A DNA stretch of 64,000 bases from an uncultured Acidobacteriota bacterium (lineage in GTDB: Bacteria; Acidobacteriota; Thermoanaerobaculia; UBA5066): assembly GCA_963779415.1 (NCBI GenBank), contig CAVZYA010000001.1, positions 1,312,001 through 1,376,000 of the forward strand. The letters are read 5' to 3'. The notes below the pieces were generated by a model, which saw only the letters and a program-made list of their open reading frames with translations, ran no database searches and was not told the DNA's origin. Position numbers and translations under genes: made by a program. Shown here piece after piece: positions 41,933 through 59,121 of this stretch. How positions within the stretch are numbered: the stretch's first letter is position 1; every line of letters begins with the position of its first letter.

Positions 41933-41941
41933 GTCCCTAGT

Positions 41942-41966: not shown

Positions 41967-41970
41967 GGCG

Positions 41971-43556: not shown

Positions 43557-43567
43557 GGCTTCCGGGA

Positions 43568-43592
43568 GACGTCCTTCCGTTGAAAAGGTTAC
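43568..43592 (-). promoter_or_regulatory. ECF promoter GTAACC-N15-CGTC (likely autoregulatory)
   Basis: Directly upstream of the sigma ATG. Confidence 0.75.
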
Positions 43593-43600
43593 GCGCCTCC

Positions 43601-44392
43601 TCAGCGGGCCACGACCTTCAAAGTCCCCTTGTAGGTGGAGAGCGCGAGCTTCGGTCCCCCGCCATTCAGGGTGGCGCTCATCCGCCGGCCCGACCGCGTC
43701 TGAACGCCGAAGTCGGACCGGAAGTCACCCCGCCGGCCGGTGTCCGCGTCGATCTCGAACGCCGCCGTCCTGGGGAGTGAGACCTCGATCTCCCCCTTGT
43801 ACGTCTCGAATCGGCTGTCCGAGCGGAGCTTCGCGAGGGCGACCGATGCATCCCCCTTGTAGGTCTCGAGACGGATCGAGCCGTCGAGATCCCGGACGAT
43901 CATCGTTCCCTTGTAGGAGTTGATCCGGAGGTCACCGGAGAGGCCGGCTACCGTCACCTTCGACTTGTAGTCCTTCACCTCGAGGTCGGCCGCTTTCGGC
44001 ATCCGGATCCGGTAGTCGACGAACGGCCGGGCCGTGCAGGACCCGAAGAACCACGTGTGGAACGACGAGAGAGAGTCGTAGTCCGACTCGATCCGGACCG
44101 TCTTCCCGTGGGCCTCGATCCGGATCTGCGTCTCTTCGACCCATTCGGCCTGAGACTTCGAGTCGCCGCAGTCGGTGTCGGCGGTGACTCGCGCCTCGAC
44201 CAGGACGTCGGGTCTCTCCTCGGCCGTCACCTCGACCGAGCCCTTGTACGTTTCGATATCGACCCGCCCTCCGGCCGGGAACGGAAGCGTCTTTCGAACC
44301 TCCTTCGACGGCTCGGCGGCCGGCGCCGGGAACGTCAGGACGAGACCCGCGAGCAGAAGGAAGGGAAAGAGAAAGCGGCGGCTTCGGCTCAT
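43601..44392 (-). CDS. Secreted DUF4097 protein
   Basis: Signal peptide; TYKG/SYKG repeats. Confidence 0.8.
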   Translation of the reverse strand: MSRSRRFLFPFLLLAGLVLTFPAPAAEPSKEVRKTLPFPAGGRVDIETYKGSVEVTAEERPDVLVEARVTADTDCGDSKSQAEWVEETQIRIEAHGKTVRIESDYDSLSSFHTWFFGSCTARPFVDYRIRMPKAADLEVKDYKSKVTVAGLSGDLRINSYKGTMIVRDLDGSIRLETYKGDASVALAKLRSDSRFETYKGEIEVSLPRTAAFEIDADTGRRGDFRSDFGVQTRSGRRMSATLNGGGPKLALSTYKGTLKVVAR

Positions 44393-44401
44393 GCCAATGA
44401 G

Positions 44402-44426
44402 AACGAAGAAACGGCCCAAAGGTTTC
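44402..44426 (-). promoter_or_regulatory. ECF promoter GAAACC-N15-CGTT
   Basis: 9 nt upstream of the ATG at 44392. Confidence 0.7.
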
Positions 44427-45738
44427 AGCCCTGGAAGATGAACTTCCGCTCCCGGGCCGACGCGAGGAGCTCCGCGCGGAAATCGGGGTGGGCGATGTCG
44501 ATGAGGGCCATCGAGCGCTGCCGGATGTTCTTTCCCCAGAGGTCCGCCACGCCGTATTCCGTCACGACGTAGCGGATGTCTCCGCGGCTCGTCACGACGC
44601 CGGCCCCTTCCTCGAGGACCGCGCAGATCCGGCTCACCTTCCCGTCCTTGGCCGACGACGGGAGGGCGATGATGGGCCGCCCCCCGTTGCTCCGCGCCGT
44701 GCCGCGGATGAAGTCGACCTGCCCGCCGATCCCCGAGAAGAAGCGGCCGCCGATGGTGTCGGCCGCGACCTGACCGGTCAGGTCGACGGCGAGAGCCGAG
44801 TTGATGGCCACCATGTGGTCGTTCCGGGCGATCTGGAACGGGTCGTTCGTGAAGCTCGAAGGGCGCATCTCGAGGGCCGGATTGTCGTGGACCCACTCGT
44901 AGAGCTTCTCAGACCCCATCAGGAACGACGTGACCATCTTGCCCGGCAGAAGCGTCTTCTTCTTCCCCGTGATGACGCCCGCCTGCCACAGGCGCATGAC
45001 GCCGTCCGAGAGCATCTCGGTATGGATGCCGAGGTCCCGCCGGCTGCCGAGGCACGCGAGGACGGCGTCGGGAATCCGGCCGATCCCCATCTGCAGCGTC
45101 GCGCCGTCGCCGATGAGGCCCGCCACGTGGAGGCCGATCTGCCGGCAGACGTCGTCGATCGGCTCGACCGGGAGCTCCGGCAGCGCGTAGTCCACCGGGA
45201 CGAGGTGGGCGATCTTCTCGACGTGGATGAACGAGTCGCCGTGCGTCCGCGGCATCCGCGGGTTCACCTCGGCGAGGATCAGCCCCGCGGAGTCGACCGC
45301 GGCCCGGACGATGTCGACCGAGACCCCGAGGCTCACGAAACCGTGCCGGTCGGGCGGGCTGACCTGTATCAGGGCGACGTCCACGGCGACTCGCCCGCTC
45401 GAGATGACGAGCGGGATCTCCGAGAGGAAGACGGGCATGAAGTCCGCCCGCCCCTCCTGGACGGCCTGCCGGACGTTCGCCCCGATGAAGAACGCGGTGT
45501 GCCGGAAGCGCTCCTGGAGGCCGGGGGCGACGTAGGGCGCCGGCCCCAGCGTCAGGAGATGGACGATCTCGTTCCCGAAGAGGTGGGTGCCGTGCTCGAC
45601 CATCGCCTCGACGAGCCGGGCGGGCTCGGCCGCGCCGGAGCCGATCAGGATCCGCCGGCCGGGCGGAATGGCGCGGATCGCCTCTTCGGGCGTCGAGACC
45701 TTCCAGCTGTAACGGGTCTGCCAGTCGTTCTCGCTCAT
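44425..45738 (-). CDS. Acetyl-CoA hydrolase/transferase (4-hydroxybutyrate CoA-transferase-like)
   Basis: LQMGIG.IP, HTEM, DLTGQV, SGIGGQVDF.RG, VTEYG.A. Confidence 0.93.
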   Translation of the reverse strand: MSENDWQTRYSWKVSTPEEAIRAIPPGRRILIGSGAAEPARLVEAMVEHGTHLFGNEIVHLLTLGPAPYVAPGLQERFRHTAFFIGANVRQAVQEGRADFMPVFLSEIPLVISSGRVAVDVALIQVSPPDRHGFVSLGVSVDIVRAAVDSAGLILAEVNPRMPRTHGDSFIHVEKIAHLVPVDYALPELPVEPIDDVCRQIGLHVAGLIGDGATLQMGIGRIPDAVLACLGSRRDLGIHTEMLSDGVMRLWQAGVITGKKKTLLPGKMVTSFLMGSEKLYEWVHDNPALEMRPSSFTNDPFQIARNDHMVAINSALAVDLTGQVAADTIGGRFFSGIGGQVDFIRGTARSNGGRPIIALPSSAKDGKVSRICAVLEEGAGVVTSRGDIRYVVTEYGVADLWGKNIRQRSMALIDIAHPDFRAELLASARERKFIFQG

Positions 45739-45841
45739 AGCATTCCCATTATTGGACGTTGCAGAATTCCGCGCGATGGTTCCTTTGCATCCCTCCGCTT
45801 CCCGGAACCGTAAGATCCTTCCGACGAGGAGCTTCACGCCG

Positions 45842-46972
45842 ATGACGTCCTCCTTCCGCGTGGCCCGGGTCGCCGGCATCGAAATCCGGGTGCACGTCAC
45901 CTTCGGATTCATCCTCCTGATCGGCGCCCTCCAGTGGGGGATCCCGCACGGAGCGGCCGGCGCCCTCTTCGGCGCCCTCCTGATGATTCTTCTCTTCGGC
46001 TGCGTCGTCCTCCACGAGCTGGGCCATTCGCTCGTCGCCCGCGCCTTCGGGATCGGCGTCCACGACATCACGCTCTACCCGATCGGCGGCATCGCGCGGA
46101 TGGAGCGGAATCCCGACAAGCCGCTGGACGAGTTCCTCATCGCCGCGGCCGGCCCCCTCGTGAACCTCGTCCTCGCCCTCATCCTCTGGGGCGTCACGGG
46201 AGTCGCCTCCTCGCTCGGAAAGCTGGACGCGGCGGCCGCCCTGAAGAACCTCGCGCCGGGACCCGAAACGGCCCTCGTCTGGCTCCTCCTCTCGAACCTC
46301 TTCCTCGCCCTCTTCAATCTGATCCCGGCCTTCCCGATGGACGGTGGCCGGATGCTCCGCGCCGTTCTCACGAAGATCTACGGGTTCCAGGAGGCGACCC
46401 GCATGGCCGCGGGCATCGGCCAGTTCCTCGCGATGGGGCTCGGCCTCTTCGGCGTCCTCTCCGGGAACTTCCTCCTCGCCCTCGTCGCCCTCTTCATCTT
46501 CATGGGGGCGTCGCAGGAGCGGGCCGCGGAGCGGGCGCGGGTCGTCCTCGGGACTCTGAAGGTCGGGGACGCCTACAACAAGAACGCCATCACCCTCGCC
46601 CCCGGCACGTACGTGAGCCAGGTCGTGGACCACATCCTGACGAGCTACCAGCCCGACTTCGCCGTGATGCAGGGGTCGGCGCTCCTCGGCGTCGTCACCC
46701 GCGACGACATCCTGAAGAACCTCGCGACCGAGCTGGGCGACGCGTGGGTGACGGGGATCATGAAGCGCGACGTCCCGAAGGTCGACGCGGGGCTGACCCT
46801 CGAGGAGGTCCGCGAGCAGCTCGCGGAGGCCGGGCAGCGCGTCGCCGCCGTCTACCGCGGGGAGACGTACCTCGGTCTCGTCTCGGCAGAGGACATCGCC
46901 GAGGCGCTCCTCGTCGTCGGCTTCCGGGCCGCCCACGACGCCCGCCGCGCCGCCGCCGAGCGGACGGAGTGA
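45842..46972 (+). CDS. Site-2 protease (M50) with CBS domains
   Basis: HELGH, AGP.VN, NLIPAFPMDGGR. Confidence 0.93.
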   Translation: MTSSFRVARVAGIEIRVHVTFGFILLIGALQWGIPHGAAGALFGALLMILLFGCVVLHELGHSLVARAFGIGVHDITLYPIGGIARMERNPDKPLDEFLIAAAGPLVNLVLALILWGVTGVASSLGKLDAAAALKNLAPGPETALVWLLLSNLFLALFNLIPAFPMDGGRMLRAVLTKIYGFQEATRMAAGIGQFLAMGLGLFGVLSGNFLLALVALFIFMGASQERAAERARVVLGTLKVGDAYNKNAITLAPGTYVSQVVDHILTSYQPDFAVMQGSALLGVVTRDDILKNLATELGDAWVTGIMKRDVPKVDAGLTLEEVREQLAEAGQRVAAVYRGETYLGLVSAEDIAEALLVVGFRAAHDARRAAAERTE

Positions 46973-47297
46973 CTTCCCCGCCAAGCCTCCGCCGTCTCCG
47001 GAACCCGCGCGACCGCGACGAGGTCCGGCGCCGCTTTCGCGCGTGGCTCGCATCGAACGAGCTGAACGCCCAGCGGAACGGGACGGGTCCTTCCCCCCGG
47101 CCGAGATTGTCTGGCTTTCCCGGGTCCTCGCCGGCGGGACCCTTCGTCCCCTCTTCCGCGAGGTCGGCCCCGACTCGCCTCCCCTGCTCGGCAGCCCGGA
47201 GGCCCAGCCTCTCACCGACTACTGCTTCCGCCTGAACAGGACGAAGCCCGGAAACGACGCCTTCCTCGGCGACTGCGCCTGCGGCGCGGCCCGTTGA
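46969..47297 (+). CDS. Small hypothetical protein, probably frameshifted near 47087
   Basis: GTGA coupling to the protease; LRRLRNPRDRDEV...NGTG continues as SFPPAEIVW...CACG in the adjacent frame. Confidence 0.5.
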
Positions 47298-47497
47298 CGG
47301 CCCGGCCCGCCCTCCCTCCCCACGCGCTCGGACGGTCGTCTTCGATGACGAGGCCCTAGAGCTCCGGCTGAACGAGCGCATACGTCCACGACAGACGGCG
47401 AAAAAGTCCCTGCAAATAGATACCTTGAAGTCTCTACCTGCAGTAACTTCTGCTCCGTAGATCGAAAAAGCCTCTATTCGCAGTGACCTCCAACGCC

Positions 47498-47515
47498 GTC
47501 TAATATGGGTTAGGC
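47498..47515 (+). other. attI-like simple site (or collapsed attC)
   Basis: GTCTAAT-ATGG-GTTAGGC, resembling attI1 CCCTAAA-ACAAA-GTTRRRY, at the start of the first cassette. Confidence 0.5.
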
Positions 47516-47561
47516 CGCAGAAGAAACATTCCTCTCACCACCACCGCGAATAGGAGGTCAC

Positions 47562-47948
47562 ATGAAACGAGTCACTGGCATCGGCGGCATCTTCTTCAAG
47601 GCCAAAGACGCTCCATCACTGCAGGCTTGGTACAAGCGGCACCTGGGAATCGATGTCCAAGTCTGGGGCGGAGCTGCCTTCGATTGGACCGACGCCGAGG
47701 GCAAGCCGGTTGCAGGCACAACTGCCTGGTGCATCGATCCGCAAGGGAGTGATCACTTTGCTCCGACCTCTGCTCCCTTCATGGTCAACTACCGAGTGGA
47801 AGACCTCCACGCCTTGGTCAAGGTCTTGAAGGAAGAAGGCTGCAAAGTGCTCGAGAAGATTGACGAATCCGAGTATGGGAAGTTTGCCTGGGTCATTGAT
47901 CCAGAGGGAAACAAGGTCGAGCTATGGCAGCCGCCTCAAGGCCAATGA
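47562..47948 (+). CDS. VOC/glyoxalase family protein (cassette 1)
   Basis: RVTGIGGIFF, NYRV.DL, YGKF.W..DPEGN.VELW. Confidence 0.92.
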   Translation: MKRVTGIGGIFFKAKDAPSLQAWYKRHLGIDVQVWGGAAFDWTDAEGKPVAGTTAWCIDPQGSDHFAPTSAPFMVNYRVEDLHALVKVLKEEGCKVLEKIDESEYGKFAWVIDPEGNKVELWQPPQGQ

Positions 47949-47979
47949 GCAGGCCCGTTAGTCACGGCTGCGAACTGCG

Positions 47980-48058
47980 GCCCAACACCTTTTCAGCGGA
48001 CTCGGCATCCGTTGGCGGCGCTCCTTCCTTCTCTCCGCTGAACGCGATATCGCTAGCC
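47980..48058 (+). other. attC site 1
   Basis: GCCCAAC...TTCAGCGG...CCGCTGAA...GCTAGCC; CTGCGGCCCAAC matches the reverse complement of cassette start GTTAGGCCGCAG at 11/12. Confidence 0.88.
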
Positions 48059-48110
48059 GGCCAGATGCTGACAAGCCGCGGTTCCTCGGAGAAACCTAAA
48101 GGAGGCAACG

Positions 48111-48503
48111 ATGACCACCAGCCGGCTTCTGTTCGTTCCGGTCTTTGTCGCCTTGGTGGCGCCGGTATCGGCGCAGGCGCCGACGCAGACGAAAGGCTTC
48201 ACGGAGAAGCTACTTGCCACAGTCGACCTTGGACCCGAGATCGAAGGCATGGCGGGGCGGCAGCTTCGGATGCGCCTGATAACGATCGAACCTGGAGGCG
48301 CCACTGTGATTCACAGCCATAAGGACAGGCCCGACACAGTTTACATCCTGCAGGGCAAGATCACCGATCATCGGGATGACGTCGCCACGGAGTATGGTCC
48401 AGGGGTCGGCTGGCCCGAGGACAACGCCACCACGCACTGGATCCAGAACGCGGGAACGATGCCGGCCGTGGAGATCTCGGTCGACATATTCAAGAAGCCG
48501 TAG
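48111..48503 (+). CDS. Secreted cupin-domain protein (cassette)
   Basis: Signal peptide; EPGG....HSH.DRP...YIL.G, HW..N.G. Confidence 0.85.
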   Translation: MTTSRLLFVPVFVALVAPVSAQAPTQTKGFTEKLLATVDLGPEIEGMAGRQLRMRLITIEPGGATVIHSHKDRPDTVYILQGKITDHRDDVATEYGPGVGWPEDNATTHWIQNAGTMPAVEISVDIFKKP

Positions 48504-48523
48504 CCTGAGGACCCGATATTCCG

Positions 48524-48583
48524 CCGCAACCACGCGTTGCGGCGGACTCGCTACGCTCACCGCTGAACGCGATATCCTTAGGC
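48524..48583 (+). other. attC site 2
   Basis: CCGCAAC-cacgc-gttgcggcggactcgctacgctcaccgctgaacgcgatatc-CTTAGGC. Confidence 0.85.
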
Positions 48584-48602
48584 GGCTCAGAGTACTAATG
48601 CG

Positions 48603-49055
48603 ATGGCCGACCTCAGCCAGGCCGGCCCCGCGGTCCAAACTTTTGTTGACGGCTGCCCTAGCGGTGGAGTATTCATGAGTCTCTTCGCCATGACTCGAGT
48701 CGGTCGGGTGGCATTAGACGCCGCTAATCGAACCCTCTCGCCGCCCCCCAACGCGTCGTCTCAGGAGGTTCGGAAGAACGGCCTGTTCTGCCTAGCTATC
48801 GGTATCGCGTGCTTTGCGCTCGGGGCTCTAGGAATGACCCTGAATCGGGACTGGATTGCCCTCGCAGAAATCCCTGCAATAGCCGGATACGCGTTCTTGA
48901 TCGTCGGCGGATACCGTGCGGTGTTTGGGAGAAGCCCTCGAGCCTCTTCGCCAGGCGAACTGTCTCTTCACAGGGCCAAATTCGCAGTCGTCTTCATCGT
49001 GCTTACGGTCGGAGCCTTCGTGATCCTGATGCTCACTATCGATGGTGTCATCTGA
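48603..49055 (+). CDS. Hypothetical membrane protein (cassette; start may be 48675)
   Basis: Three hydrophobic segments. Confidence 0.6.
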   Translation: MADLSQAGPAVQTFVDGCPSGGVFMSLFAMTRVGRVALDAANRTLSPPPNASSQEVRKNGLFCLAIGIACFALGALGMTLNRDWIALAEIPAIAGYAFLIVGGYRAVFGRSPRASSPGELSLHRAKFAVVFIVLTVGAFVILMLTIDGVI

Positions 49056-49115
49056 CACCGTGGGGACGAGTCCCCGGGGCGGCGCTGGCTCGTCGGTAGA
49101 GAAAGGGGGGCCCTA

Positions 49116-49793
49116 ATGGGTGTCGAATACCGCCACTTTCTCGTAGCGGCCGAGCCAACCTGGCTTCCTCAGGCTGACACGCTTCCCAAGGTCGATGCGC
49201 TGCTCCGGAGATGGGCGCTCGTGACCAACGAGCCGCAGATCTATGACCTCACGGGCGGCAGAAAGAACCCGGTCGCCTCGTTTCCATCGACCGGTCCGGG
49301 TCCCGGTATCGCCGTCGTTTACCCAATGGTTCAGGGGCCAGTCGTGCCTACTCTCTTCGGCCCGTCCTATTACAAGGAAGACGTTGCTCCAGACGACCGG
49401 TATATTCAGGGACTCACGGTCGTCGTGGGTGCCGACTACCGTGTTCATTGGAGCAGCGAGGGCATCTGCTTCACCGTGGTCGAACCACCACGAGAGGCAG
49501 GCAGGGACGTCGAGCCCTACCATGCAGATCAACACCTCTACCTCTACTCTGAGTCGTACCCCGCAACGCCCGGTACCACGCCTCCCACGGTCAAGGTTGA
49601 AGTCGATCCCAGAGCGCACGGCAACGTAGCTTGGAAGACTACTCAGGGGTGTGGCGCGGCGCTATCGTTTTCGCCTGCGGCAAGGATATACCGGCCTCAT
49701 CGAGGGGCCTCATGCTCTCGCGTCCAGCTATTCGTAGCCGACGTCTGCCAAGCACTCGGCTCTCGTCTTCTCGAAGTCGGTGAAATATATTGA
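49116..49793 (+). CDS. Hypothetical protein (cassette), possibly with compensating frameshifts at about 49635-49725
   Basis: Globular composition; the alternative frame there reads DYSGVWRGAIVFACGKDIP. Confidence 0.65.
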   Translation: MGVEYRHFLVAAEPTWLPQADTLPKVDALLRRWALVTNEPQIYDLTGGRKNPVASFPSTGPGPGIAVVYPMVQGPVVPTLFGPSYYKEDVAPDDRYIQGLTVVVGADYRVHWSSEGICFTVVEPPREAGRDVEPYHADQHLYLYSESYPATPGTTPPTVKVEVDPRAHGNVAWKTTQGCGAALSFSPAARIYRPHRGASCSRVQLFVADVCQALGSRLLEVGEIY

Positions 49794-49812
49794 GCGGTCC
49801 GGGACCGGTGCC

Positions 49813-49873
49813 GTCTAACCCCGCGCTGCTGCGGACCCGCTTGCGCTCGCCGCTGAACGCGATATCGTCGGGC
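49813..49873 (+). other. attC site 3
   Basis: GTCTAAC-cccgc-gctgctgcggac...cgccgctgaacgcgatatc-GTCGGGC. Confidence 0.9.
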
Positions 49874-49904
49874 AACCGAAGGTCGAACGAGATGGAGGTA
49901 CCTC

Positions 49905-50345
49905 ATGGGATCGATTACGCCTCCTCCACCGCCTATTCCTGCCCGCGGCGTGGCGCCCGCATCGGCGCTCGCCTCCGCACCTTCTCGCGCGCGACAGGCG
50001 GCACGCGCCTCGTGATGGCTCCGCTCATACGACATCATCTTCAACTACACCATCAAGAACCTGGCCTTGGCGCTTACGGCCGCGGGCTGTCATTGCATCG
50101 TCAGTCTGATCCTCTATCTGGCCGGCCTAGTCCTCGCCGTCTACGCGCTCTCGCAGGTGCGGTCGGCTGGGCGCAAGGGGATTTTGGCGCCTGCAATCGT
50201 CGGGCTCGTTCTGAATGGCCTATTCCTCCTGCTTGTCGGTGGCGTGGCCGTATCCAGCTATCTCGACGCCAGAGCTCGGGCGTCTCAGCGTGAGTCGCTC
50301 GACCGGCCCCTTTCAGCCTCTTCCTTACATGCTGCCGTTGTCTGA
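49905..50345 (+). pseudogene. Disrupted Pro-rich/TM (DUF4190-like) cassette gene
   Basis: GGAGGT RBS, MGSITPPPPP..., in-frame TGA at 50013, TM segments downstream. Confidence 0.6.
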
Positions 50346-50399
50346 CCCCGCGTTGCGGCGGACTCGCTCCGCTCGTCGCGGAACGCGATATCGTTACGT
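50340..50399 (+). other. attC site 4
   Basis: GTCTGAC-cccgc-gttgcggcggactcgctccgctc...aacgcgatatc-GTTACGT. Confidence 0.85.
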
Positions 50400-50423
50400 G
50401 GAACGTCGCCATAGCCGCGTATC

Positions 50424-50685
50424 TGGAAACGTACAGCCTGTTGGTCCTAACCGCGGTGATCGCATCGCGGTGATGATTTGGCAGTGCAGCCGAATCAACT
50501 CCATTCTTGAATCCTGGGCGAAGGCGAACAATATCGAGATTATGTCTCGTAGTCTCGGGCTCTTTAGACCTTGGCCCGTTCTTCTTCACCCTCGGACACA
50601 GGTGGTACATTTCCTGACGGTGCTTGCCGCCGGCATCGAACGAGCCGCAGGGGGAAGGGCGGAGGGTCTCGACGGCACACAGTAG
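50424..50685 (+). pseudogene. Degraded small cassette gene
   Basis: Fragments in different frames (YSLLVLTAVI / SILESWAKANNIEI) between attC4 and attC5. Confidence 0.45.
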
Positions 50686-50752
50686 CGACACCGTCGAGAC
50701 AAGATGGGAGCCATGAGAGCACCTCGAAGCTCCTTTCGCGGGGTCCGGTGCC

Positions 50753-50812
50753 ATCTAACCCTGTGTTGCAGCTGGCTCGCCCCACTCGCCGCTGAACGCG
50801 ATATCGTCAGGC
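50753..50812 (+). other. attC site 5
   Basis: ATCTAAC-cctgt-gttgcagctgg...cgccgctgaacgcgatatc-GTCAGGC. Confidence 0.88.
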
Positions 50813-50822
50813 GGATGCACCA

Positions 50823-51638
50823 ATGTTGAGGCTCGACCGAGCCGGCATCCTCGTGTCTGCGGCATGCTTTGTCGCTATCCTCGTTGGCTATCTGTGTCAA
50901 GTCCTCTTGGAGCGGCCGTACGAGGGGCTCGCGTTGGAATTGCCCCTGGCCCTCCTTCCGGTCGTCGGCGCGATCTCCCAGCGCAGGAAATGGGCCTTAT
51001 GGTTACTGGCTCGCTCTCCGGGGATCGCACTAACTCTCCTCGGCCCTGCCCTCGCGCTCTTCACACCCGTTCATTCGGTGAACCCCATATTTCAGGTCGC
51101 TCTCTGCACCCTCTTATTTGGCGTTGGAGCCATCCTGCTTACGCCACCACTCCTGAAGCGTCCCCGATACATCCTGGCGGGGGCGGTTCTTCTTTCACAG
51201 GTGGTCCTTCAGACCGGCGCCGTACGCGCAGCCTATACCGGCTACCTTGACACTACTCTTATCGTTCGCAACGCTTCGGCGGAGCCCCTCCTCGACCTAT
51301 CGCTCTCCGGAGCAGGGTTTTCCGCCTCGTGGCCAGTTCTTCTGCCAGGCCAGGCCGTACGCAAGTCAATTCATGTCACCACCCAGCAGAACCTCACCGT
51401 TCAGTTTCACACCGCTCATCGGTCACGTCACGTGCCCACGGCCGCGATCTTTGAACGCCGCGACGTAATCTCCTTGACCATCAAACCAGACCTCCTCCTC
51501 GACGCGACGGTTTATCCCGGAACCATAGTCCCGCCGCGGCGGTCTTCGACTCTCTGCCCGAGGGTGGAGCCTGGCGTGAGCCCCGTTGCGGCGGACCGGC
51601 AGTTACCCGATGAAAGGGGACACTCGGGCCTAACCTGA
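50823..51638 (+). CDS. Hypothetical multi-TM protein with C-terminal beta domain (cassette)
   Basis: ATG 10 nt after attC5; about 5 hydrophobic segments; 3' end runs into attC remnants. Confidence 0.65.
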   Translation: MLRLDRAGILVSAACFVAILVGYLCQVLLERPYEGLALELPLALLPVVGAISQRRKWALWLLARSPGIALTLLGPALALFTPVHSVNPIFQVALCTLLFGVGAILLTPPLLKRPRYILAGAVLLSQVVLQTGAVRAAYTGYLDTTLIVRNASAEPLLDLSLSGAGFSASWPVLLPGQAVRKSIHVTTQQNLTVQFHTAHRSRHVPTAAIFERRDVISLTIKPDLLLDATVYPGTIVPPRRSSTLCPRVEPGVSPVAADRQLPDERGHSGLT

Positions 51639-51719
51639 GGGGGGATGGCCAGATTCAAGAGTTCCAGAAAGGCCCATGGGCACGGCGCGGCGTTCAAGCT
51701 GAAGGCGGTATGGTCAGGT
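51575..51719 (+). other. Split/degenerate attC remnants
   Basis: Left half cccc-gttgcggcggacc at about 51581; right half gctgaaggcggtatg-GTCAGGT at 51698-51719. Confidence 0.6.
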
Positions 51720-51779
51720 GGCGGCCAAGGCCGGTCGAGTGTGCCGGACACCCCGGCTCAATGGAAGAGGAGGTCTCCT

Positions 51780-52061
51780 GTGTCCGAAAGATTTCTTATC
51801 GAGGTTCCGCACGAAGCGACCGTGGCGGCGTGTGTTCAGGCGATCGAAGTCTTCCTCCAGGCCGGGTCTCATTTCCTGACCCATGCGGACTGGGGATGCA
51901 AGGACGGGGAGCACAAGGCATGGATCATCCTGGAGGTCGATAGCAAGGACGAGGCTCGATGCATCGTGCCACCTGCTTTTCGGTCGAAGGCGAAAATCGT
52001 ACAGCTCAACGCGTTCACGATGAAAGACATCGAGGGCACCTCTCACCGGCAAGAGCCCTAG
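51780..52061 (+). CDS. Small hypothetical protein (cassette)
   Basis: GAGGAGG RBS then GTG; FLIEVPH...C, WGC.DG.H.AW. Confidence 0.75.
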   Translation: MSERFLIEVPHEATVAACVQAIEVFLQAGSHFLTHADWGCKDGEHKAWIILEVDSKDEARCIVPPAFRSKAKIVQLNAFTMKDIEGTSHRQEP

Positions 52062-52097
52062 GTGCGCGCACGTCGCCGATACCCGGGGCCGACGTCC

Positions 52098-52153
52098 GCG
52101 AAACATTCGAGCGGACGCGCCACGCTCGCCGCTGAGACGCGGTATCATCAGGC
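52098..52153 (+). other. attC site, degenerate
   Basis: gagcggacgcgccacgctcgccgctgagacgcggtatc-ATCAGGC. Confidence 0.7.
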
Positions 52154-52184
52154 TCCTCAACCGTCATATCCGAAAGGAGCCGCA

Positions 52185-52607
52185 ATGGCGGAGAACAAGA
52201 CGAAGGCTACGAAAGCGAGCGTGGAGGGCTACCTCTCCCGCATCGAGGACGAGGCCAGGCGCAAAGACTGTGGAGCTTTGGCCAGGCTGATGACCAAGGC
52301 GACGAAACAGCGGCCGAAAATGTGGGGAACGAGCATCGTCGGGTTCGGCAGCTATCACTACAAGTACGAAAGCGGCCGCGAAGGCGACTCGTGCTTGACG
52401 GGCTTCTCCTCTCGGAAGGGCGCCATCAGCGTCTACCTCCTGGCGAGCTTCCCCGGACACGACGAACTCCTCGCCAGGCTCGGAAAGTACAAGATGGCGA
52501 AGGCCTGCCTCTACATCCACAAACTCAGCGACGTCGACCTCAAGACCCTGGAAGCGCTCGTCGCCGGTTCCGTCAAAGAAGTGAAGCGTCGCCATGGCGA
52601 AGGCTAA
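52185..52607 (+). CDS. DUF1801 (YdhG-like) protein
   Basis: MAENKT, MWG.SIVGFG.YHY.Y.SGREGD, LGK.K..K.CLY. Confidence 0.9.
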   Translation: MAENKTKATKASVEGYLSRIEDEARRKDCGALARLMTKATKQRPKMWGTSIVGFGSYHYKYESGREGDSCLTGFSSRKGAISVYLLASFPGHDELLARLGKYKMAKACLYIHKLSDVDLKTLEALVAGSVKEVKRRHGEG

Positions 52608-52618
52608 AGGAGATACAG

Positions 52619-53053
52619 ATGACGGATTCCTCGGTAATCAAAGTCGGTCAGCTCTCGATTCGGTATCTGTTGGACGGGGCGCGCACCGGTACGATGGGAA
52701 TGTTCGAGTTGTCCGTTCCGCCCGGATCAAACGTGCCTCCGCCTCATAGTCACTCCAACAACGAAGAATGTGTCTACGTCCTGGAGGGAATCTTGAGGTA
52801 CTCCGTAGGAGACGTGACGCGCGATCTCGGTCCCGGCGGGTCGATGTTCACGCCCAAAGGCACCGTCCACCAGTTCTCCAATCCGTTCTCCACGCCCGCC
52901 CGCGCCTTGATCGTCCTCTCCCCGGATATCGGGGCACAGTACTTCCTGGATGTCGGGAGTGTCGTCAACGCCGGGGCGCCGCCCGACAAGGCGGCTCTGA
53001 TCTCCGTGATGGCTCGTTATGGCCTGGTTCCGGCTCCCCCCAAAGGTATTTGA
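52619..53053 (+). CDS. Cupin-domain protein
   Basis: PPPHSH...EE..YVLEG, P.GTVH.F.N. Confidence 0.88.
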   Translation: MTDSSVIKVGQLSIRYLLDGARTGTMGMFELSVPPGSNVPPPHSHSNNEECVYVLEGILRYSVGDVTRDLGPGGSMFTPKGTVHQFSNPFSTPARALIVLSPDIGAQYFLDVGSVVNAGAPPDKAALISVMARYGLVPAPPKGI

Positions 53054-53124
53054 CCCGCGAATACACCAAACCGCCTTCGGCGGCCGGTGATCAGCAACGT
53101 GACAACCTCTCGGAAGGAGGCGAC

Positions 53125-53481
53125 GTGACTGTTCGGGAACTTCTGCGTTGGCAGTGGAGCGGCTATCCGAAGTATCACCGTTCCCGGGTGAACCTGCTCG
53201 TTCACATCGTCGCCGTGCCGCTTTTTCTCGCCGGCAACCTTGGACTTCTGGCCTCGCTCTTCGAGGGCTCCGCCGTCACGGGAGCCGTTTCGCTCGGCGT
53301 CATGGTGGTTTCTCTCGCCCTGCAGGGGCGTGGCCACCGCCGGGAAGAGGCTCCACCCGAGCCGTTCACCACCCCGATCAACGCGGTCTCGCGCATCTTT
53401 CTCGAGCAGTGGGTCACCTTTCCACGGTTCGTCGTCTCCGGAGGGTGGCTCCGTGCGCTGCGCCATCTCCCGCAGCCCTGA
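53125..53481 (+). CDS. DUF962/Mpo1-like small membrane protein
   Basis: Y..YH....N..H...VP, Q..GH..E. Confidence 0.75.
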   Translation: MTVRELLRWQWSGYPKYHRSRVNLLVHIVAVPLFLAGNLGLLASLFEGSAVTGAVSLGVMVVSLALQGRGHRREEAPPEPFTTPINAVSRIFLEQWVTFPRFVVSGGWLRALRHLPQP

Positions 53482-53626
53482 TCACGCGTTGCTTCCCCCA
53501 CCATGAGAACTGCTTCGCGACGAGGACTGAGCCGGACCGGTCTCCGCAACGTCCCGGAACCAGTTTCTCGGAATCTCATATCTGAGAGTAGGCGGGAGCA
53601 TCCAGAGAAACAGATAGGGGGAGACC

Positions 53627-53881
53627 ATGCGGCTTCGGAGTCTTGCGGCTTTGATTGCGGGCGCTCTGGCGGTGGCCGTCTCATCTGTTCACCCGGTGGA
53701 CGCCGAGCCGATGCCGGCGAGCGCCTTCATCCAGGATCTGACGTGGCTGCGCGACGTCTGGGCGGCGAAGGAGAAGAGTTTCTCGCCGGAGACCTTGGCG
53801 CGGAGCGCCGGCCTCCGCCGCTCGACCTTCTGCGACGTCTCACGCGATCCGCAGCTAAGATCTACGAGAGGTGCCGAATGA
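53627..53881 (+). pseudogene. Probably truncated secreted-protein gene
   Basis: RBS, signal peptide, about 30 plausible residues, then low-quality tail. Confidence 0.4.
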
Positions 53882-54369
53882 TGACGCGCAAAATCACGCG
53901 GTTTTTCGCGTGCGCTCTGCTGACGCTGGTGGTTTCGCCGCCCGATTTCGCCACCGCACAATCAGCCTCCTGGCAGCGTAACTGGAAGGACTTCGTCAAG
54001 GCGTTCAACACATGCATCACCCAGAAGTCGTGCGACCCCGCATCCCATTTCTACGGCAAGGTCGTGATCTGGGAGGGAACGGTCGAGAAGTCGGGGGACG
54101 TCGTCACTATCGACATGGGTCCACTTCGTCTGAAAGACCGAAAGGGAGTGGCCAGCGATTCCGTGACCGCCCTTCTCTTCCCGGTCAAGGGGAAAGGCAG
54201 CAGCTGGAGCCGAGCCACCCCCGGGAGCACGATCGCGTTCAAGGGAATGCTGCCAGCGAAGGGTTCGGAGTTGGCGGCCGTGGAGCTGAATTCCATGGGC
54301 AGCAAGAAGTTCGCGTTCGTGCAGCTCGTGGATGCCGAGCTCCTGACACGGCCGGTCCCAGCCAGGTAA
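53878..54369 (+). CDS. Secreted hypothetical protein (possible OB-fold)
   Basis: Signal peptide; GKVV.WEGTV and G..I.F.G.L pattern. Confidence 0.65.
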   Translation: MMTRKITRFFACALLTLVVSPPDFATAQSASWQRNWKDFVKAFNTCITQKSCDPASHFYGKVVIWEGTVEKSGDVVTIDMGPLRLKDRKGVASDSVTALLFPVKGKGSSWSRATPGSTIAFKGMLPAKGSELAAVELNSMGSKKFAFVQLVDAELLTRPVPAR

Positions 54370-54400
54370 TGCCACTGCAGGGTGCGACACATTCGGCTTC

Positions 54401-54418
54401 GTCTAACACGAGATGAAG
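54401..54418 (+). other. Left half of an attC (remnant)
   Basis: GTCTAAC-acgag-atgaag with no right half. Confidence 0.5.
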
Positions 54419-54428
54419 GGAAACGCGC

Positions 54429-55049
54429 ATGAGACACCTCTCCGAGAGTCTTCTTCTGATCCTCCCCCTCCTTCTTGGGGCGGTGGATCCCGCGAACGCT
54501 CCGAAGAACCGTGATCTCGTACTTGGCTTCGCGGATTGCGAGCCGGCCATCTTCACCATGCTGACCGCTCCTGTCACGGTTCGATTGACGAACATCACGT
54601 ATGCGCCGACCAGCCGTCTGGCTGGCTTCAAACAGGAAGTCGTCGGCGCTGCCGGTCAAGCCCAGGCGGTGACGGTCAGAATCGACGGCGAAAAGTGGAA
54701 CGGGCGGTGCGAAAGCCTCCTGTACGCGGCGGAACTCGCGGGCGGCCGGAAAAGCAGTCCCAGTTACCCGTCCTGGTCGGGAAAAGATGCCGAAGGCATG
54801 ATCGCCTTCAGTCCGGTGGAGCCGGGTGGCGTCGTCCTTGGTGGCAGCGGCACCCTCGAGGGGGGCGTGGAAACCCGGTTCAAGTATGACGAGTCAGGCC
54901 GCCGTCTTCTCGACACACAGTCCTTCGTGCTCCGCGGAACGTCGTATGTGATCAAGTACTCCGACTACCAGTACGGCGTCGTGCAAGTAGGACAGCACAA
55001 GATCAAGAAACTTCGCGGATACACGGCGTCACTAACCGTCAAACGCTGA
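54429..55049 (+). CDS. Secreted hypothetical protein
   Basis: Signal peptide; beta-rich. Confidence 0.65.
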   Translation: MRHLSESLLLILPLLLGAVDPANAPKNRDLVLGFADCEPAIFTMLTAPVTVRLTNITYAPTSRLAGFKQEVVGAAGQAQAVTVRIDGEKWNGRCESLLYAAELAGGRKSSPSYPSWSGKDAEGMIAFSPVEPGGVVLGGSGTLEGGVETRFKYDESGRRLLDTQSFVLRGTSYVIKYSDYQYGVVQVGQHKIKKLRGYTASLTVKR

Positions 55050-55083
55050 ATCAACTCCCCGTTCCGGTATAGGCTCCCGCGCC

Positions 55084-56127
55084 GTGAGAGCGAACTTCGG
55101 CCGTCCCCTCGCGGGGACTCGGATCGTCGACGCGACGTCGCTCCTGCCGGGCGGCTTCGCGACGCGCCTTCTGGCCGACCTCGGCGCCGAGGTCGTGAAG
55201 GTGGAGCCGCCGGGGGGCGAGTCGGGACGCCGCTTTCCGCCGCTCGACGGCGGCCTCAGCGTCTACTACCGCCTGACGGCGGCCGGAAAGAAGGTGCGCT
55301 TCCTCGACCTGAAGACGCCGAAGGGACAGGCCGCGCTGGAAGCTCTTCTTTCGCGCGCCGACGTCCTGATCCACTCGCTCCGGAGCGGCGCCGCCGCGAG
55401 GCTCTCGCTTTCGCAGGCCGACGTGGCCGCCCGCCATCCCCGCCTCGTCCAGGTGCGGATCGCGGGCTTTCGTCGTTCGGAGAAGGCCGCTCACGACCTG
55501 AACTTCCTCGCGGCGTCGGGCCTCCTCGACCTGAACCGTGACGCGCGCGGCCGGCCGGTGATCCCCGGGTTCCAGATCCCGGACGTTGCCGGCGGGGGGT
55601 GGCCCGCCGTGGCGGCCATCCTCACGGGGCTCCTCGAGCGGGAGCGGACGGGGCGGGCGCCCGCGACGACGGTCTCGGTTCACGAGGGGAGCCTCGCGCT
55701 CCTCTCGTTCGGCGCCGCGGAGTACCTCGCGACGGGCCGGGTGGTGAGCGACGGCGCCCTCGTGACGCACGAACTCCATCCCTGCTACGGCCTCTACCCG
55801 ACGAAGGACGGTCGCCTCCTCGCCGTCGCCTGCATCGAGTCGAAATTCTGGACGGGCTTCTGCGAAGCCGTCGGCCTTCCGGACCTCGTTCCGCTCCAAT
55901 ACGCCTCGGGCGCGGCGGGGCGAAAGGCACGGCGGCGCCTCTCGGCGGCGACGCGGCGGAGGACTTTCGCCGAATGGGCCCGGTTCCTCTCGGCGCTCGA
56001 CGTCTGCGTGACGCCCGTGGCGACGCTCGCCGAGGCCGTGAACGCGGAGCGCCGAGCCGAGAAGGGGCGCGGCGTCTTCCGCCGCGGCAGGGACGGAAGG
56101 TACGGGATCGTCCCGAGGATCCGCTGA
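55084..56127 (+). CDS. CaiB/BaiF family CoA transferase
   Basis: PLAG.R..D, LADLGAEV.KVE.P, HD.N. Confidence 0.9.
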   Translation: MRANFGRPLAGTRIVDATSLLPGGFATRLLADLGAEVVKVEPPGGESGRRFPPLDGGLSVYYRLTAAGKKVRFLDLKTPKGQAALEALLSRADVLIHSLRSGAAARLSLSQADVAARHPRLVQVRIAGFRRSEKAAHDLNFLAASGLLDLNRDARGRPVIPGFQIPDVAGGGWPAVAAILTGLLERERTGRAPATTVSVHEGSLALLSFGAAEYLATGRVVSDGALVTHELHPCYGLYPTKDGRLLAVACIESKFWTGFCEAVGLPDLVPLQYASGAAGRKARRRLSAATRRRTFAEWARFLSALDVCVTPVATLAEAVNAERRAEKGRGVFRRGRDGRYGIVPRIR

Positions 56128-56162
56128 ATGAACCCCCACGAAGCCCGCGGAAGGGAGCCTGA

Positions 56163-57782
56163 ATGCGCGGACGGATGCAGCACGACCCGCTGATCGTCAA
56201 CCGGATCTTCGAACGGGCCGTGACGCTCTTCCCGCAGCAGGAGATCGTCACCTGGACGAAGGAGGGCCTCCACCGCGAGACGTTCGCCGCGTTCGGAGAG
56301 CGGGTCGGGCGCCTCGCGTCCGCGCTCGCGGCGCTCGGCGTGGAGCCGGGGGACCGCGTCGCCACCTTCGCCTTCAACGCGTTCCGCCACCAGGAGCTCT
56401 ACTTCGCCGTGCCGTGCATGGGGGCCGTCCTCCACACGCTGAACATCCGGCTCCACGCCGATCAGATCGTCTGGATCGCGAACCACGCCGAGGACCGCGT
56501 CCTCTTCGTCGACGCGCCGCTCCTTCCGGTGCTGGCCCCGCTCGTGCCGCGCCTCGCGTCGGTGGAGGTCGTCGTCGTGATGGGAGAGGCCGACCGGAGC
56601 GCGCTCCCCACGAGCCGCGACTACGAGGAGCTCCTCGCGAAGGCCGCCCCGGACTTCCCGTGGCCCGAGCCCGACGAGGACGACGCGGCCGCGATGTGCT
56701 ACACGAGCGGCACGACGGGCCACCCGAAGGGGGTCGTCTATTCGCACCGGTCGACGGTGCTGCACGCGACGATGATGAATCTCGCGAGCACCGTAGGCCT
56801 GACGGACCGGGACGCCATCCTCCCGGTCGTCCCGATGTTCCATGCGAATGCGTGGGGGATCCCGTACGCCGCGCCGATGGCGGGCGCCAAGCTCGTCCTC
56901 GCCGGCGCCGCCAGCGCCGACCCTTCGGCCCTCGTCGGACTGATCCGGGGAGAGCGGGTGACGGTGACGGCCGGCGTCCCGAGCGTCTGGACCGCGCTTC
57001 TCCACCACCTCGAAGGGACACCGAGCGATCTGAAGTCCCTCCGGCTCGTCACCGTCGGCGGCGCCGCGACCTCCGTCTCGATGATCGAGCGGTTCAAGAG
57101 CCTCGCGGGCGTCGACGCCGTCCAGGGGTGGGGCATGACCGAGACCGGGCCGGTCGCTTCGCTCTCCTTCCCGACGGCCGGAATGGAGGCGCTTCCCGAG
57201 CCCGAGCGGGTCCGGGCGCGGGCCCGGCAGGGGCGGGTCGTGCCGGGTGTCCGGTTCCGGGTGGTCTCCCCCGACGGCCGCATCGCCCCGTGGGACGACC
57301 GGACGAAGGGAGAGCTCGAGGTCAAGGGAAACTGGGTCGCCGACTCGTACTACAACGATGAAAAGTCGTCGGAGCGGTTCGACGACGGCTGGCTTCGAAC
57401 CGGGGACATCGCCGTCGTCGACCTCCACGGGTCGATCCGGATCGTCGATCGCGCGAAGGACCTCGTGAAATCCGGGGGGGAGTGGATCTCGAGCGTCGAC
57501 CTCGAGCTGGAGCTGATGGGACATCCTTCCGTTCTCGAGGCGGCGGTGATCGGCGTACCCGACGAGAAGTGGGACGAGCGTCCGCTCGCCTGCGTCGTCG
57601 TGAAGCCGGGGAAGAGCGCGACGCCGGACGAGCTGCGGGCATTTCTGGCCCCGAGGGTGCCGAAATGGTGGTTGCCCGAAGAGATCGTCTTCCTGGCGGA
57701 GCTGCCGAAGACGAGCGTCGGCAAGCTCGACAAGAAGGTGCTGCGGCAGCGGTTCCGGGTGAAGCCGCCGCAGGAGGCGTGA
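56163..57782 (+). CDS. Fatty-acyl-CoA ligase (AlkK-like)
   Basis: YTSGTTGHPKG, WGMTET, RTGD, DR.KD..KSGGEWISS, KTSVGK. Confidence 0.95.
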   Translation: MRGRMQHDPLIVNRIFERAVTLFPQQEIVTWTKEGLHRETFAAFGERVGRLASALAALGVEPGDRVATFAFNAFRHQELYFAVPCMGAVLHTLNIRLHADQIVWIANHAEDRVLFVDAPLLPVLAPLVPRLASVEVVVVMGEADRSALPTSRDYEELLAKAAPDFPWPEPDEDDAAAMCYTSGTTGHPKGVVYSHRSTVLHATMMNLASTVGLTDRDAILPVVPMFHANAWGIPYAAPMAGAKLVLAGAASADPSALVGLIRGERVTVTAGVPSVWTALLHHLEGTPSDLKSLRLVTVGGAATSVSMIERFKSLAGVDAVQGWGMTETGPVASLSFPTAGMEALPEPERVRARARQGRVVPGVRFRVVSPDGRIAPWDDRTKGELEVKGNWVADSYYNDEKSSERFDDGWLRTGDIAVVDLHGSIRIVDRAKDLVKSGGEWISSVDLELELMGHPSVLEAAVIGVPDEKWDERPLACVVVKPGKSATPDELRAFLAPRVPKWWLPEEIVFLAELPKTSVGKLDKKVLRQRFRVKPPQEA

Positions 57783-57786
57783 CCCG

Positions 57787-59121
57787 ATGAGTGCGACTTC
57801 CGGGGCGTTCCCCTCCGAGGTGGACGCCGTCGTCTGCGGCGGCGGACCGGGGGGCTCGACGTTCGCGACGTTGATGGCCCTGAAGGGCTACCGGACCGTC
57901 GTCTTCGAGCGCGAGAGGTTTCCCCGCTTCCACATCGGCGAGTCACTCCTCCCCTGGAACGTGCCGCTCTTCGAGCGCATCGGGGTGCTTTCGAAGCTGA
58001 AGGAGGCGAAACCGCAGCTGAAGCTCGGGGCCCGCTTCTACCACCAGGGCTCGGACTTCACGCGCCCGGTGCTCTTCGCAAACGGCATCGACCGCGACCA
58101 CCCGAGCGCGTTCCAGGTGAAGCGGGCCGAGTTCGACGCCCTTCTCCTCGGCCACGCCCGGGAGTCGGGCGCGACCGTCATCGAAGGGGCGCGGGTGACG
58201 GAAGCGCTCTTCAGCGAGGACGGCGTGAGGGCACACGGCGTGAAGGTGCTCCTCGAGGGAGAGAGCGAGCCGCGCTCCGTGGAGGCGAAGGTGGTCGTGG
58301 ACGCCACCGGCCGCGACGCCCTCCTCTCCCGCCGCCTCGGCGGGCGGAGGCGCGATCCCCTTCTCGACCGCTCGGCCGCGTTCGCGCACTACGACACCTT
58401 CCGGCGTGCGGAGGGACCCACCGGCGGGGACATCGTCGTCATCACGACGCCGGACGGCTGGTGGTGGCTGATCCCCTTCTCCGACGGCTCCGTCTCGGTC
58501 GGCATCGTCATGCCGTCGCGGCGGTTCAAGGAGCGCCCCGGCACCGTGGAACGGCTCTTCGAGGAGTCGGTGGCGGGGACACCGGAGGTGCGAGACCTCC
58601 TTGCGGGCTCGAAGCGGACGATGGACGTGCAGGCCATCGCGGACTACTCGTACTCGACGCCCCGCATCTCCGGCGACGGCTTCTGTCTCGTGGGAGACGC
58701 GGCCTGCTTCCTCGATCCCGTCTTCTCGAGCGGCGTCCTCCTCGCGATGGAGTCGGCCGAGCTGGCGGCTTCCTCGGTCGACCGCGCTCTCCGCAGCAAG
58801 GGGCGCGTCGACGCGGCGGACTTCAGGGAATTCGAGAAGATCTACCGGCGCGCCGTCCGGCGATTTGCGGGCCTGGTCCACGGCTTCTACCAGCCTCATG
58901 TGCTCGAGACCTTCTACGCGCCCGCCCCGAATCCCTGGATCGAGCGCGGGGTCACGACGGTGCTCAGTGGCGGGGTGTTCTTCCCGGACTTCAAGGCCCG
59001 ACTTTCCATGGCCGCTTTCCATTTCTTCACGGCCGTGACGCGCATCGTCCAGGCGATCCGCGGCCGCGGCGCCTTCGAGCGGGCGACGGGACTGACGGAA
59101 GGTGGCCGGGATCGCCGATGA
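57787..59121 (+). CDS. Flavin-dependent halogenase-family protein
   Basis: GGGPGG, FPRFHIGESLLP, K79 in K.G, WWWLIP, GDAA.F.DPVFSSG. Confidence 0.8.
   Translation: MSATSGAFPSEVDAVVCGGGPGGSTFATLMALKGYRTVVFERERFPRFHIGESLLPWNVPLFERIGVLSKLKEAKPQLKLGARFYHQGSDFTRPVLFANGIDRDHPSAFQVKRAEFDALLLGHARESGATVIEGARVTEALFSEDGVRAHGVKVLLEGESEPRSVEAKVVVDATGRDALLSRRLGGRRRDPLLDRSAAFAHYDTFRRAEGPTGGDIVVITTPDGWWWLIPFSDGSVSVGIVMPSRRFKERPGTVERLFEESVAGTPEVRDLLAGSKRTMDVQAIADYSYSTPRISGDGFCLVGDAACFLDPVFSSGVLLAMESAELAASSVDRALRSKGRVDAADFREFEKIYRRAVRRFAGLVHGFYQPHVLETFYAPAPNPWIERGVTTVLSGGVFFPDFKARLSMAAFHFFTAVTRIVQAIRGRGAFERATGLTEGGRDRR

Follow-up and report, generated by a model that had tools for sequence, protein, structure and literature searches.

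We analyzed a 64,000-nt stretch of DNA (hereafter the window) from an uncultured Acidobacteriota bacterium (contig CAVZYA010000001.1, positions 1,312,001 to 1,376,000 of the forward strand), and found that it very probably carries an integrase-less chromosomal integron cassette array, or CALIN (cluster of attC sites lacking an integron integrase), with seven cassettes at 47510-52147. The CALIN assignment had been proposed in an initial annotation made from the sequence alone; it is supported here by the architecture of the attC sites, by a crossover signature, by cassettes shared with other genomes and by the lack of a tyrosine recombinase in the window. In the proposed organization, each cassette would consist of one or two open reading frames (ORFs) followed by an attC site, six sites being of one conserved type and the seventh degenerate. 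The single-stranded bottom strand of a site would fold by pairing of the core boxes (RYYYAAC and GTTRRRY) and of the inner repeats, with two single-base bulges on one arm. This fold would be bound by an integron integrase (IntI) supplied from elsewhere, which would cut the right core between G and TT, excise the cassette as a circle and re-insert the circle; we infer that the cassettes are recombined by IntI. Without an integrase, the array would be static and its genes could be expressed only by read-through from co-oriented genes upstream.

Detection of the attC sites and the cassettes they delimit

Five copies of the motif CGCTGAACGCGATATC with at most one mismatch lie inside the region and a sixth copy (three mismatches) is found at 25615; none of 100 shuffles reached six matches in the window. 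A repeat finder gave copy families spaced 525, 1290, 526, and 413 nt. Two covariance models were built, R1 from the bottom strand of four copies and R2 from 35 family members, and R2 was run with filters off over the whole 64 kb on both strands (128 kb searched). R2 gave six matches with E values from 4.7e-17 to 1.1e-7, all on the - strand, i.e., the bottom strand (47975-48060, 48518-48585, 49808-49875, 50335-50401, 50748-50814, and 52089-52155). The four best R2 matches are its own training sequences; the sites at 47975 and 52089, which are absent from R1, were still found by R1 with E values of 4.6e-4 and 1.1e-4, respectively. The next best R2 match (E=0.025, 34960-35022) lies inside a ketoacyl-synthase gene and was taken as chance. 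At E<=1.1e-7 the model thus recovers exactly the six positions at which related hairpins had been reported from the sequence, and the half-copy mentioned there is also real (left half at 51581-51596, 15 of 16 bases). Mean column identity among four attC sites of the array is 86%.

The cassettes and their attC sites are listed below; complementarity is that between the start of a cassette and the left arm of its own attC.

47510-48052, + strand: cassette 1, ORF 47562-47948, glyoxalase-fold (Pfam Glyoxalase_6 and Glyoxalase)
47980-48058: attC1, 79 nt, R2 match 47975-48060 (E 1.1e-7), complementarity 11.5 of 12
48053-48577, + strand: cassette 2, ORF 48111-48503, secreted cupin (Pfam Cupin_2)
48524-48583: attC2, R2 E 1.6e-15, complementarity 5 of 12
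48578-49867, + strand: cassette 3, ORFs 48675-49055 (membrane-like) and 49116-49793, no Pfam or PADLOC match
49813-49873: attC3, R2 E 4.7e-17, complementarity 9 of 12
49868-50393, + strand: cassette 4, small membrane-like ORF 50067-50345
50340-50399: attC4, R2 E 4.9e-16, complementarity 9 of 12 (3.5 with the adjacent right core)
50394-50806, + strand: cassette 5, a sole ORF of 70 aa, 50473-50685
50753-50812: attC5, R2 E 1.0e-15, complementarity 9 of 12
50807-51713, + strand: cassette 6, membrane-like ORF of 271 aa, 50823-51638, with the attC left-half copy 51581-51596 in its 3' end
51714-52147, + strand: cassette 7, ORF of 93 aa, 51780-52061
52087-52153: attC7, R2 E 5.1e-8

Architecture and covariation of the attC sites

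The sites are 60-79 nt in length. On the coding strand they read left core (GYCTAAC type), five bases, GTTGCRGCGGAC, a short loop, CCGCTGAAC, GCGATATC and right core (GTYRRRY type). All six sites begin with RYYYAAC and end with GTTRRRY, apart from the core deviations given below, in one orientation and 3' of an ORF. In the bottom-strand consensus the cores pair, and GTT:AAC, a bulge, four base pairs, a second bulge and three base pairs follow. The two single unpaired bases are on the double-prime arm, which carries the left core; they are C in 27 and C in 31 of the 35 sequences, respectively.

In the 35-sequence alignment, 85.7% of the pair cells are paired, vs 28-45% after a shift of the partners by one to three columns. 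Changes on both sides are seen in nine of the 17 pairs, and the covariation score was reached by none of 500 shuffles. For the two inner-repeat helices, 88.6 and 93.9% of the cells are paired, and five of the seven helix 2 pairs change on both sides. The alignment was fitted to the model and therefore leans towards the canonical structure. We concluded that covariation supports the canonical pairing predicted for the cores and inner repeats.

Crossover signature

In integron recombination the right core is cut behind its first G, so that the bases beyond the cut are those of the next cassette. Once a cassette is circular, its first bases pair with the left core at its own far end. We scored 12-nt extensions of every cassette start against every attC left arm. 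Complementarity to the cassette's own attC amounted to 11.5, 9, 9, and 9 of 12 in four of the six cassettes. The sum over own cassettes was 50.5, compared to 35.0 for the physically adjacent cores, and only five of 720 permutations do as well.

Related attC sites and shared cassettes in other genomes

A 17-nt pattern was used to scan a genome collection; at least 120 loci were found, most of them chance single matches, and the contig of the window is not among them. R1 was run on 119 of these loci (L006 was left out as it repeats the contig of L005). Clear family members were present at 12 or more loci in at least nine other assemblies; among the matches listed there are four Thermoanaerobaculia, one Holophagae, two unclassified Acidobacteriota, one Polyangia, and one Acidithiobacillales assemblies. 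At least 29 family copies were found outside the window at E<=0.001, including 11 in a single 12.5 kb contig (L005). The initial annotation had regarded the attC family as the array's own. This did not hold: the copies in at least nine other assemblies, seven of those listed being Acidobacteriota, mean that the attC type is lineage-wide, not private to this array.

Some of the cassettes themselves recur next to these sites. Cassette 1 has a counterpart at L054:10059-10458 (91.5% identity over 400 nt), preceded there by a full attC. For cassette 7, the counterpart is L005:2095-1829 (81% identity over 267 nt), part of the L005 attC array, and the similarity extends into the end of the preceding attC. 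The coding part of the cassette 2 cupin is 78% identical to L005:642-281, where it is found in a longer gene without attC. Taken with the attC type, the near-identical cassette suggests a source among Acidobacteriota of the Thermoanaerobaculia/Holophagae kind. The genes flanked by the sites in the relatives are other small ones (DUF1801, DUF1697, L-PSP, and glyoxalase), and the sites form clusters of one to four sites between housekeeping genes at unrelated loci (L054, L051, and L075); a 2.98 Mb contig carries the attC type at two places ∼450 kb apart (L039 and L118). At L039, 10119-10310 (+ strand) encodes a 3' remnant of an integron integrase, namely the last 62 codons with the rest of the gene missing (TIGR02249, E 6.6e-25, profile positions 254-315 of 315; stronger than XerC/XerD). 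A family attC lies ∼60 nt away from the remnant, at the head of a DUF1697 cassette.

Three further observations were made at the scanned loci. In L045, an attC array of four sites reaches beyond the contig start, and an IS110-family transposase gene (L045 2195-3433, - strand) comes directly after it. Single copies of the attC type are present at L096 292-360 (60.8 bits, Polyangia bin) and L112 259-326 (58.4 bits, Acidithiobacillales bin); they would reflect either cross-phylum transfer or mis-binned contigs. Four Afipia loci (L037, L047, L068, and L095) gave identical weak R1 matches (23.8 bits, E 0.004), which are probably a conserved Afipia sequence that contains the 17-nt pattern and is unrelated to attC.

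Search for an integrase and class assignment

The window, which reaches 47 kb upstream and 9 kb downstream of the array, has 178 stop-to-stop frames of at least 180 aa, none of them with a Phage_integrase domain (Pfam); the earlier remark that the window holds no tyrosine recombinase is therefore correct at this frame size. No integrase remnant was detected in 46950-47560, where the seven frames of at least 25 aa were searched against NCBIfam at E<=1 and two by Pfam at E<=0.01. There is no sigma-70-like promoter in 47000-55300, including the 212 nt upstream of the head site of the array.

In the available sections of Cury et al. (2016; PMC4889954), to which our citations of that work refer throughout, a CALIN is defined by two or more attC sites at most 4 kb apart and no integron integrase nearby. 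The array has six sites spaced 413-1341 nt apart and no integrase in the window, and having attC sites and no tyrosine recombinase it is therefore a CALIN in the sense of these authors. A complete integron has intI, attI, and a promoter by the first cassette; here neither intI nor a remnant of it was found, and no sigma-70-like promoter. A sedentary chromosomal integron has more than 19 attC sites or is present in all genomes of a species (Cury et al., 2016; PMC4889954), and the site count here is six to seven.

Array ends and probable decayed sites

The features at the head of the array, between cassettes 6 and 7, and beyond the last attC are as follows.

47495-47516, + strand: head site S0, left core GCCGTCTAA, 5 nt, right core GTTAGGC, inner attC part missing
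51626-51719: candidate degenerate attC after cassette 6, right core GTCAGGT at 51713-51719
52154-55049, + strand: tail, six co-oriented ORFs, GC 0.614
52185-52607, + strand: tail ORF, DUF1801 (Pfam)
52619-53053, + strand: tail ORF, cupin (Pfam)
53125-53481, + strand: tail ORF, weak Mpo1-like match (Pfam)
53627-53881, 53878-54369, and 54429-55049, + strand: three tail ORFs, secreted or unknown

The crossover G of S0 is at 47509 and cassette 1 starts at 47510. S0 can be aligned to the full attC in front of the same cassette in L054; both arms match and ∼43 interior nt are absent. In the whole window GCCGTCTAA occurs only at S0 and attC3. When S0 was compared with R2, only the R boxes were matched (E ∼0.05-0.1 when 701 nt were searched, 4.7 for the whole window). 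Judged by these alignments, S0 may be either a collapsed attC or an attI-like simple pair of cores. Upstream of S0, GCTGAACG at 47061 and 47367 was considered as an older decayed attC and rejected (best family-model E 0.16-0.5 in the 701-nt search); ten + strand copies of GCTGAACG are present in the 64 kb, two of them in the 540 nt between the upstream M50 protease gene and the array head.

Between cassettes 6 and 7 there is probably a degenerate attC. R2 does not support the candidate at 51626-51719 (E>5) and its fold is poor (z +2.2); the candidate was kept because it aligned to L005, where 51700-51725 matches the 3' end of the attC at L005:2125-2192 together with the cassette start that follows there.

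In the tail, the intergenic stretches do not fold as attC-like hairpins. A remnant at 54401-54420, between two ORFs, consists of GTCTAAC, five bases and ATGAAGGG; this left half scores 20.0 bits for blocks A+B of a published Acidobacteria attC model (see below), and there is no right half. Since 52156-55200 contains no family attC, the last six ORFs are not established as cassettes; the tail may consist of decayed cassettes, with a composition like that of the cassettes. The original delimitation of the array, 47498 to 55049, thus stands for the attC-bounded part at 47509-52153 (∼4.6 of 7.5 kb) and fails for the 2.9-kb tail without attC.

Gene content, composition and flanking genes

Among the 14 ORFs, the recognized products are a glyoxalase-fold protein, two cupins, a DUF1801 protein, and a weak Mpo1-like match; the other nine have no Pfam family. 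The 13 ORFs that were tested against the PADLOC defence models gave no match, and the cassettes carry no recognizable resistance or defence genes. Such a content (glyoxalase, cupins, DUF1801, and many family-less ORFs) is typical of integron cassettes.

All 14 short ORFs in 47.5-55.05 kb are on the + strand. In 500-nt intervals, the GC content is 0.566-0.638 across 47500-54999, compared to 0.65-0.75 in 40000-47499 and 0.69-0.73 in 55000-58999, so both the count of about 14 co-oriented ORFs and the lower GC first noted by inspection were confirmed. The attC-bounded segment (47510-52153) and the tail (52154-55049) have nearly the same GC, 0.610 and 0.614, respectively. GC at third codon positions is 0.66-0.78 in the island ORFs vs ∼0.9 in the neighboring genes. 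The array lies between the genes for an M50 protease and a CaiB-like protein and is oriented the same way as both.

45752-46972, + strand: host M50 protease with CBS domains (Pfam), left flank
47043-47297, + strand: ORF of 84 aa between the M50 gene and the array
47298-47509: lower-GC non-coding stretch before the array head, 212 nt, GC 0.585
55084-56127, + strand: host CoA-transferase family III (CaiB-like) gene, right flank (Pfam CoA_transf_3, E 2.6e-77)

The CaiB-like gene begins 34 nt past the last island ORF, where the GC is back to 0.69-0.73. No flank synteny was found with the relative loci that were fetched; the only two matches were both a conserved sigma-54 activator domain. Rfam at gathering thresholds returned no family in the whole window, and a tRNA scan found none.

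Elsewhere in the window, two toxin-antitoxin pairs lie side by side at 28455-30173: a MazE/AbrB-type antitoxin (28455-28664) with a PIN-domain protein (28757-29041), and an Xre-like antitoxin (29275-29703) with a RES-domain toxin (29580-30173). In a 420-aa frame at 18218-19480 (- strand), residues 328-382 form an HNH endonuclease domain; a heptosyltransferase gene on the opposite strand (18831-19829) overlaps the upstream part of the frame, and the real HNH gene is therefore probably much shorter. Two secretion or pilus gene sets are located at 3068-13955 and 20606-27919; one set includes a pilin-like N-methyl protein, a secretin, a T2SSE ATPase, and a T2SSF protein, and the other includes two T2SSE ATPases, a T2SSF protein, and a 1031-aa fusion of a PilS-like kinase, a receiver, and a sigma-54 activator.

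Weighing of the evidence and alternative explanations

A number of results weigh against the reading as an integron cassette array. The claim that each cassette start is complementary to its own attC left end was reproduced for the four pairs originally quoted and is not true of every cassette, since the two others score 5 and 7 of 12. Core deviations were noted: the right cores GCTAGCC, CTTAGGC, and ATCAGGC do not begin with GTT, and there is a left core GTCTGAC. The unpaired bases in well-studied attC sites are G and T, unlike the C and C of this family. Folding of the naked bottom strands gave z scores from -2.55 to +1.66 for seven sites, with one below -2, and in the predicted ensemble the inner-repeat helix does not exceed a probability of 8e-4 at any of the six window sites (family median 1e-4); neither calculation had a known attC as control. 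The canonical hairpin is possible and its pairing is backed by the covariation, yet it is not favored by nearest-neighbor energies. Strong alternative hairpins formed by the left halves of attC2 and attC7 compete with the canonical fold: in each site the left core region and the left inner repeat make a near-perfect hairpin of their own, 11 bp in attC2 (48521-48547) and 9 bp with one bulge in attC7 (52095-52117). G:T pairs favor the bottom strand only mildly (62 vs 35 cells). R2 found no family attC in 52156-55200 (best E 0.61), which counts against the tail as part of the array. Finally, we ran a four-block scan, a crude one that uses the emissions of the published Acidobacteria model and not the covariance model itself; only attC5 stood clear of the background, attC3 ranked fourth and attC1 seventh (+ strand), and attC2, attC4, and attC7 were outside the top 15.

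The poor predicted folding, which is no better than that of shuffled sequences, together with the strong left-half hairpins of attC2 and attC7, is what one would cite for reading the hairpins as repetitive extragenic palindromes or terminators, unrelated to integrons, in an ordinary horizontally acquired island; the sites are also intergenic, GC-rich, and imperfectly palindromic. We consider this explanation highly improbable. All copies have one orientation relative to the ORFs and their ends match the integron core consensus; a cassette start pairs with the far end of its own cassette, not with the adjacent arm; and elsewhere the sites flank different genes, one of them adjoining the integron integrase remnant. 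There are no T-runs, and the region has four terminator-like sites vs 6.1 expected, none within the attC sites.

If the sites are attC sites, three routes to the present array can be compared. We favor, and infer, an ageing fragment of a former array, because the head site has lost the attC interior, one attC is degenerate, and the tail keeps just a half-site. It is possible, though on balance doubtful, that the cassettes were instead inserted one by one in trans at a non-attI chromosomal site (the attG or secondary-site route of Loot et al.), in which case the array would have no local platform ancestry and would still be a target of that integrase. Such insertion is listed as a source of CALINs in the available text of both Cury et al. 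(2016; PMC4889954) and the Loot et al. preprint (10.1101/2022.09.11.507474), and it is consistent with the absence of any intI remnant from the 540 nt that separate the head site from the M50 gene, with the small clusters of one to four sites at unrelated loci in related genomes (in one contig at two places ∼450 kb apart), and with a crossover signature that is intact in four of six cassettes. However, the DNA left of the first crossover is the family left core GCCGTCTAA, otherwise present only at attC3, the head aligns with the left arm of the full L054 attC, and the 212 nt upstream are also foreign in composition. The S0 left core and the L054 alignment are therefore better explained by a collapsed attC or attI than by a GWT genome site.

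The third route, which we regard as unlikely, is that the array is the distal piece of a complete and active sedentary chromosomal integron, split off by rearrangement or with its platform outside the 64 kb. In its favor, the window extends just 47 kb upstream and 9 kb downstream of the array, the attC sites form a homogeneous set (86% mean column identity, four sites) and homogeneity is tied to larger integrons (Cury et al., 2016; PMC4889954), and L005, with 11 model matches in 12.5 kb, shows that this attC type exists in long arrays. Against it, genes of host composition bound the array on both sides, and the array has just six to seven attC sites and looks decayed at both head and tail; under the 4 kb and 10 kb rules for clustering it would be a CALIN anyway (Cury et al., 2016; PMC4889954).

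Significance

The array is one more integrase-less cassette array from a little-cultivated phylum, an ordinary case of a known element, and it leaves the understanding of integrons unchanged. Its attC type is common to Thermoanaerobaculia, Holophagae, and other Acidobacteriota assemblies, with single copies in Polyangia and Acidithiobacillales bins. Because it is shared across these assemblies, the attC type is usable as a marker for cassette flow among these soil and sediment bacteria. A more speculative proposal, to which we give little credence, is that many small, scattered, integrase-less clusters of one conserved attC type are, in place of a single platform, the normal state in Thermoanaerobaculia-like Acidobacteriota, and that they are fed at core-only sites like S0, each a minimal attI-like landing site produced by attC collapse. 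If true, this would be a lineage-specific integron variant with its own IntI recognition code, its attC type having two bottom-strand C bulges 4 bp apart and, within the right spacer, an invariant GATATC.

Comparison with known systems

In Vibrio cholerae, near-identical, lineage-typical attC repeats lie within a sedentary array that has an adjacent intI and attI and far more cassettes. The array described here resembles it in having homogeneous attC sites; it differs in having six to seven sites and no integrase in 64 kb. In the literature, we found nothing devoted to integrons of Thermoanaerobaculia or Acidobacteriota.

Among published CALINs, 83% have fewer than six sites and 95% have no recognizable intI pseudogene beside them (Cury et al., 2016; PMC4889954). 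The present array is like those described there in having at least two attC sites less than 4 kb apart, a small size, cassettes of unknown function, and no adjoining intI pseudogene; it is unlike them in that the head keeps a core-only site and a tail of similar composition, without attC, follows the array, and neither difference is essential. The Loot et al. preprint (10.1101/2022.09.11.507474), as far as its text was available, counts 2961 CALINs, along with 3400 single-site elements, among 21,105 complete genomes and reports that integrases can insert cassettes at GWT sites of the genome (10.1101/2022.09.11.507474). As with the SALIN (single attC site lacking an integron integrase)/attG elements of that work, the cassettes here are away from a platform, between housekeeping genes, and oriented with their neighbors; in contrast, the left junction resembles an attC or attI core pair and not a bare GWT.

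Taxon-specific attC covariance models have been published by Ghaly et al. (2021; PMC8352920), whose Acidobacteria model, in the portion of the paper at hand, is based on 120 sites, has a sensitivity of 30%, and has the consensus GCCUAAC ... GUU g AAGC ... cGCUUAAc UCGagC GUUAGGC (PMC8352920). In the crude block scan described above, attC5 was the top match at 33.2 bits, against a background of ∼18, and the tail gave no two-sided match. Compared by eye with that consensus, whose high-information positions it largely matches, the family has in common the 7-nt cores GCCTAAC and GTTAGGC, a 5-nt left spacer, an inner stem that has GTT/AAC at its base, an unpaired G that follows GTT on the top strand, and the right inner repeat cGCT(T/G)AAC, with seven of eight positions matched. 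It departs from the model in the inner stem, which is CAGC/GCTG instead of AAGC/GCTT, a single pair changed on both sides (A:U to C:G); in the spacers, with 8 nt and a conserved GATATC on the right and CCCGC on the left; and in the loop, which is ∼12 nt long, whereas the 106-position Acidobacteria model has a long loop of low information.

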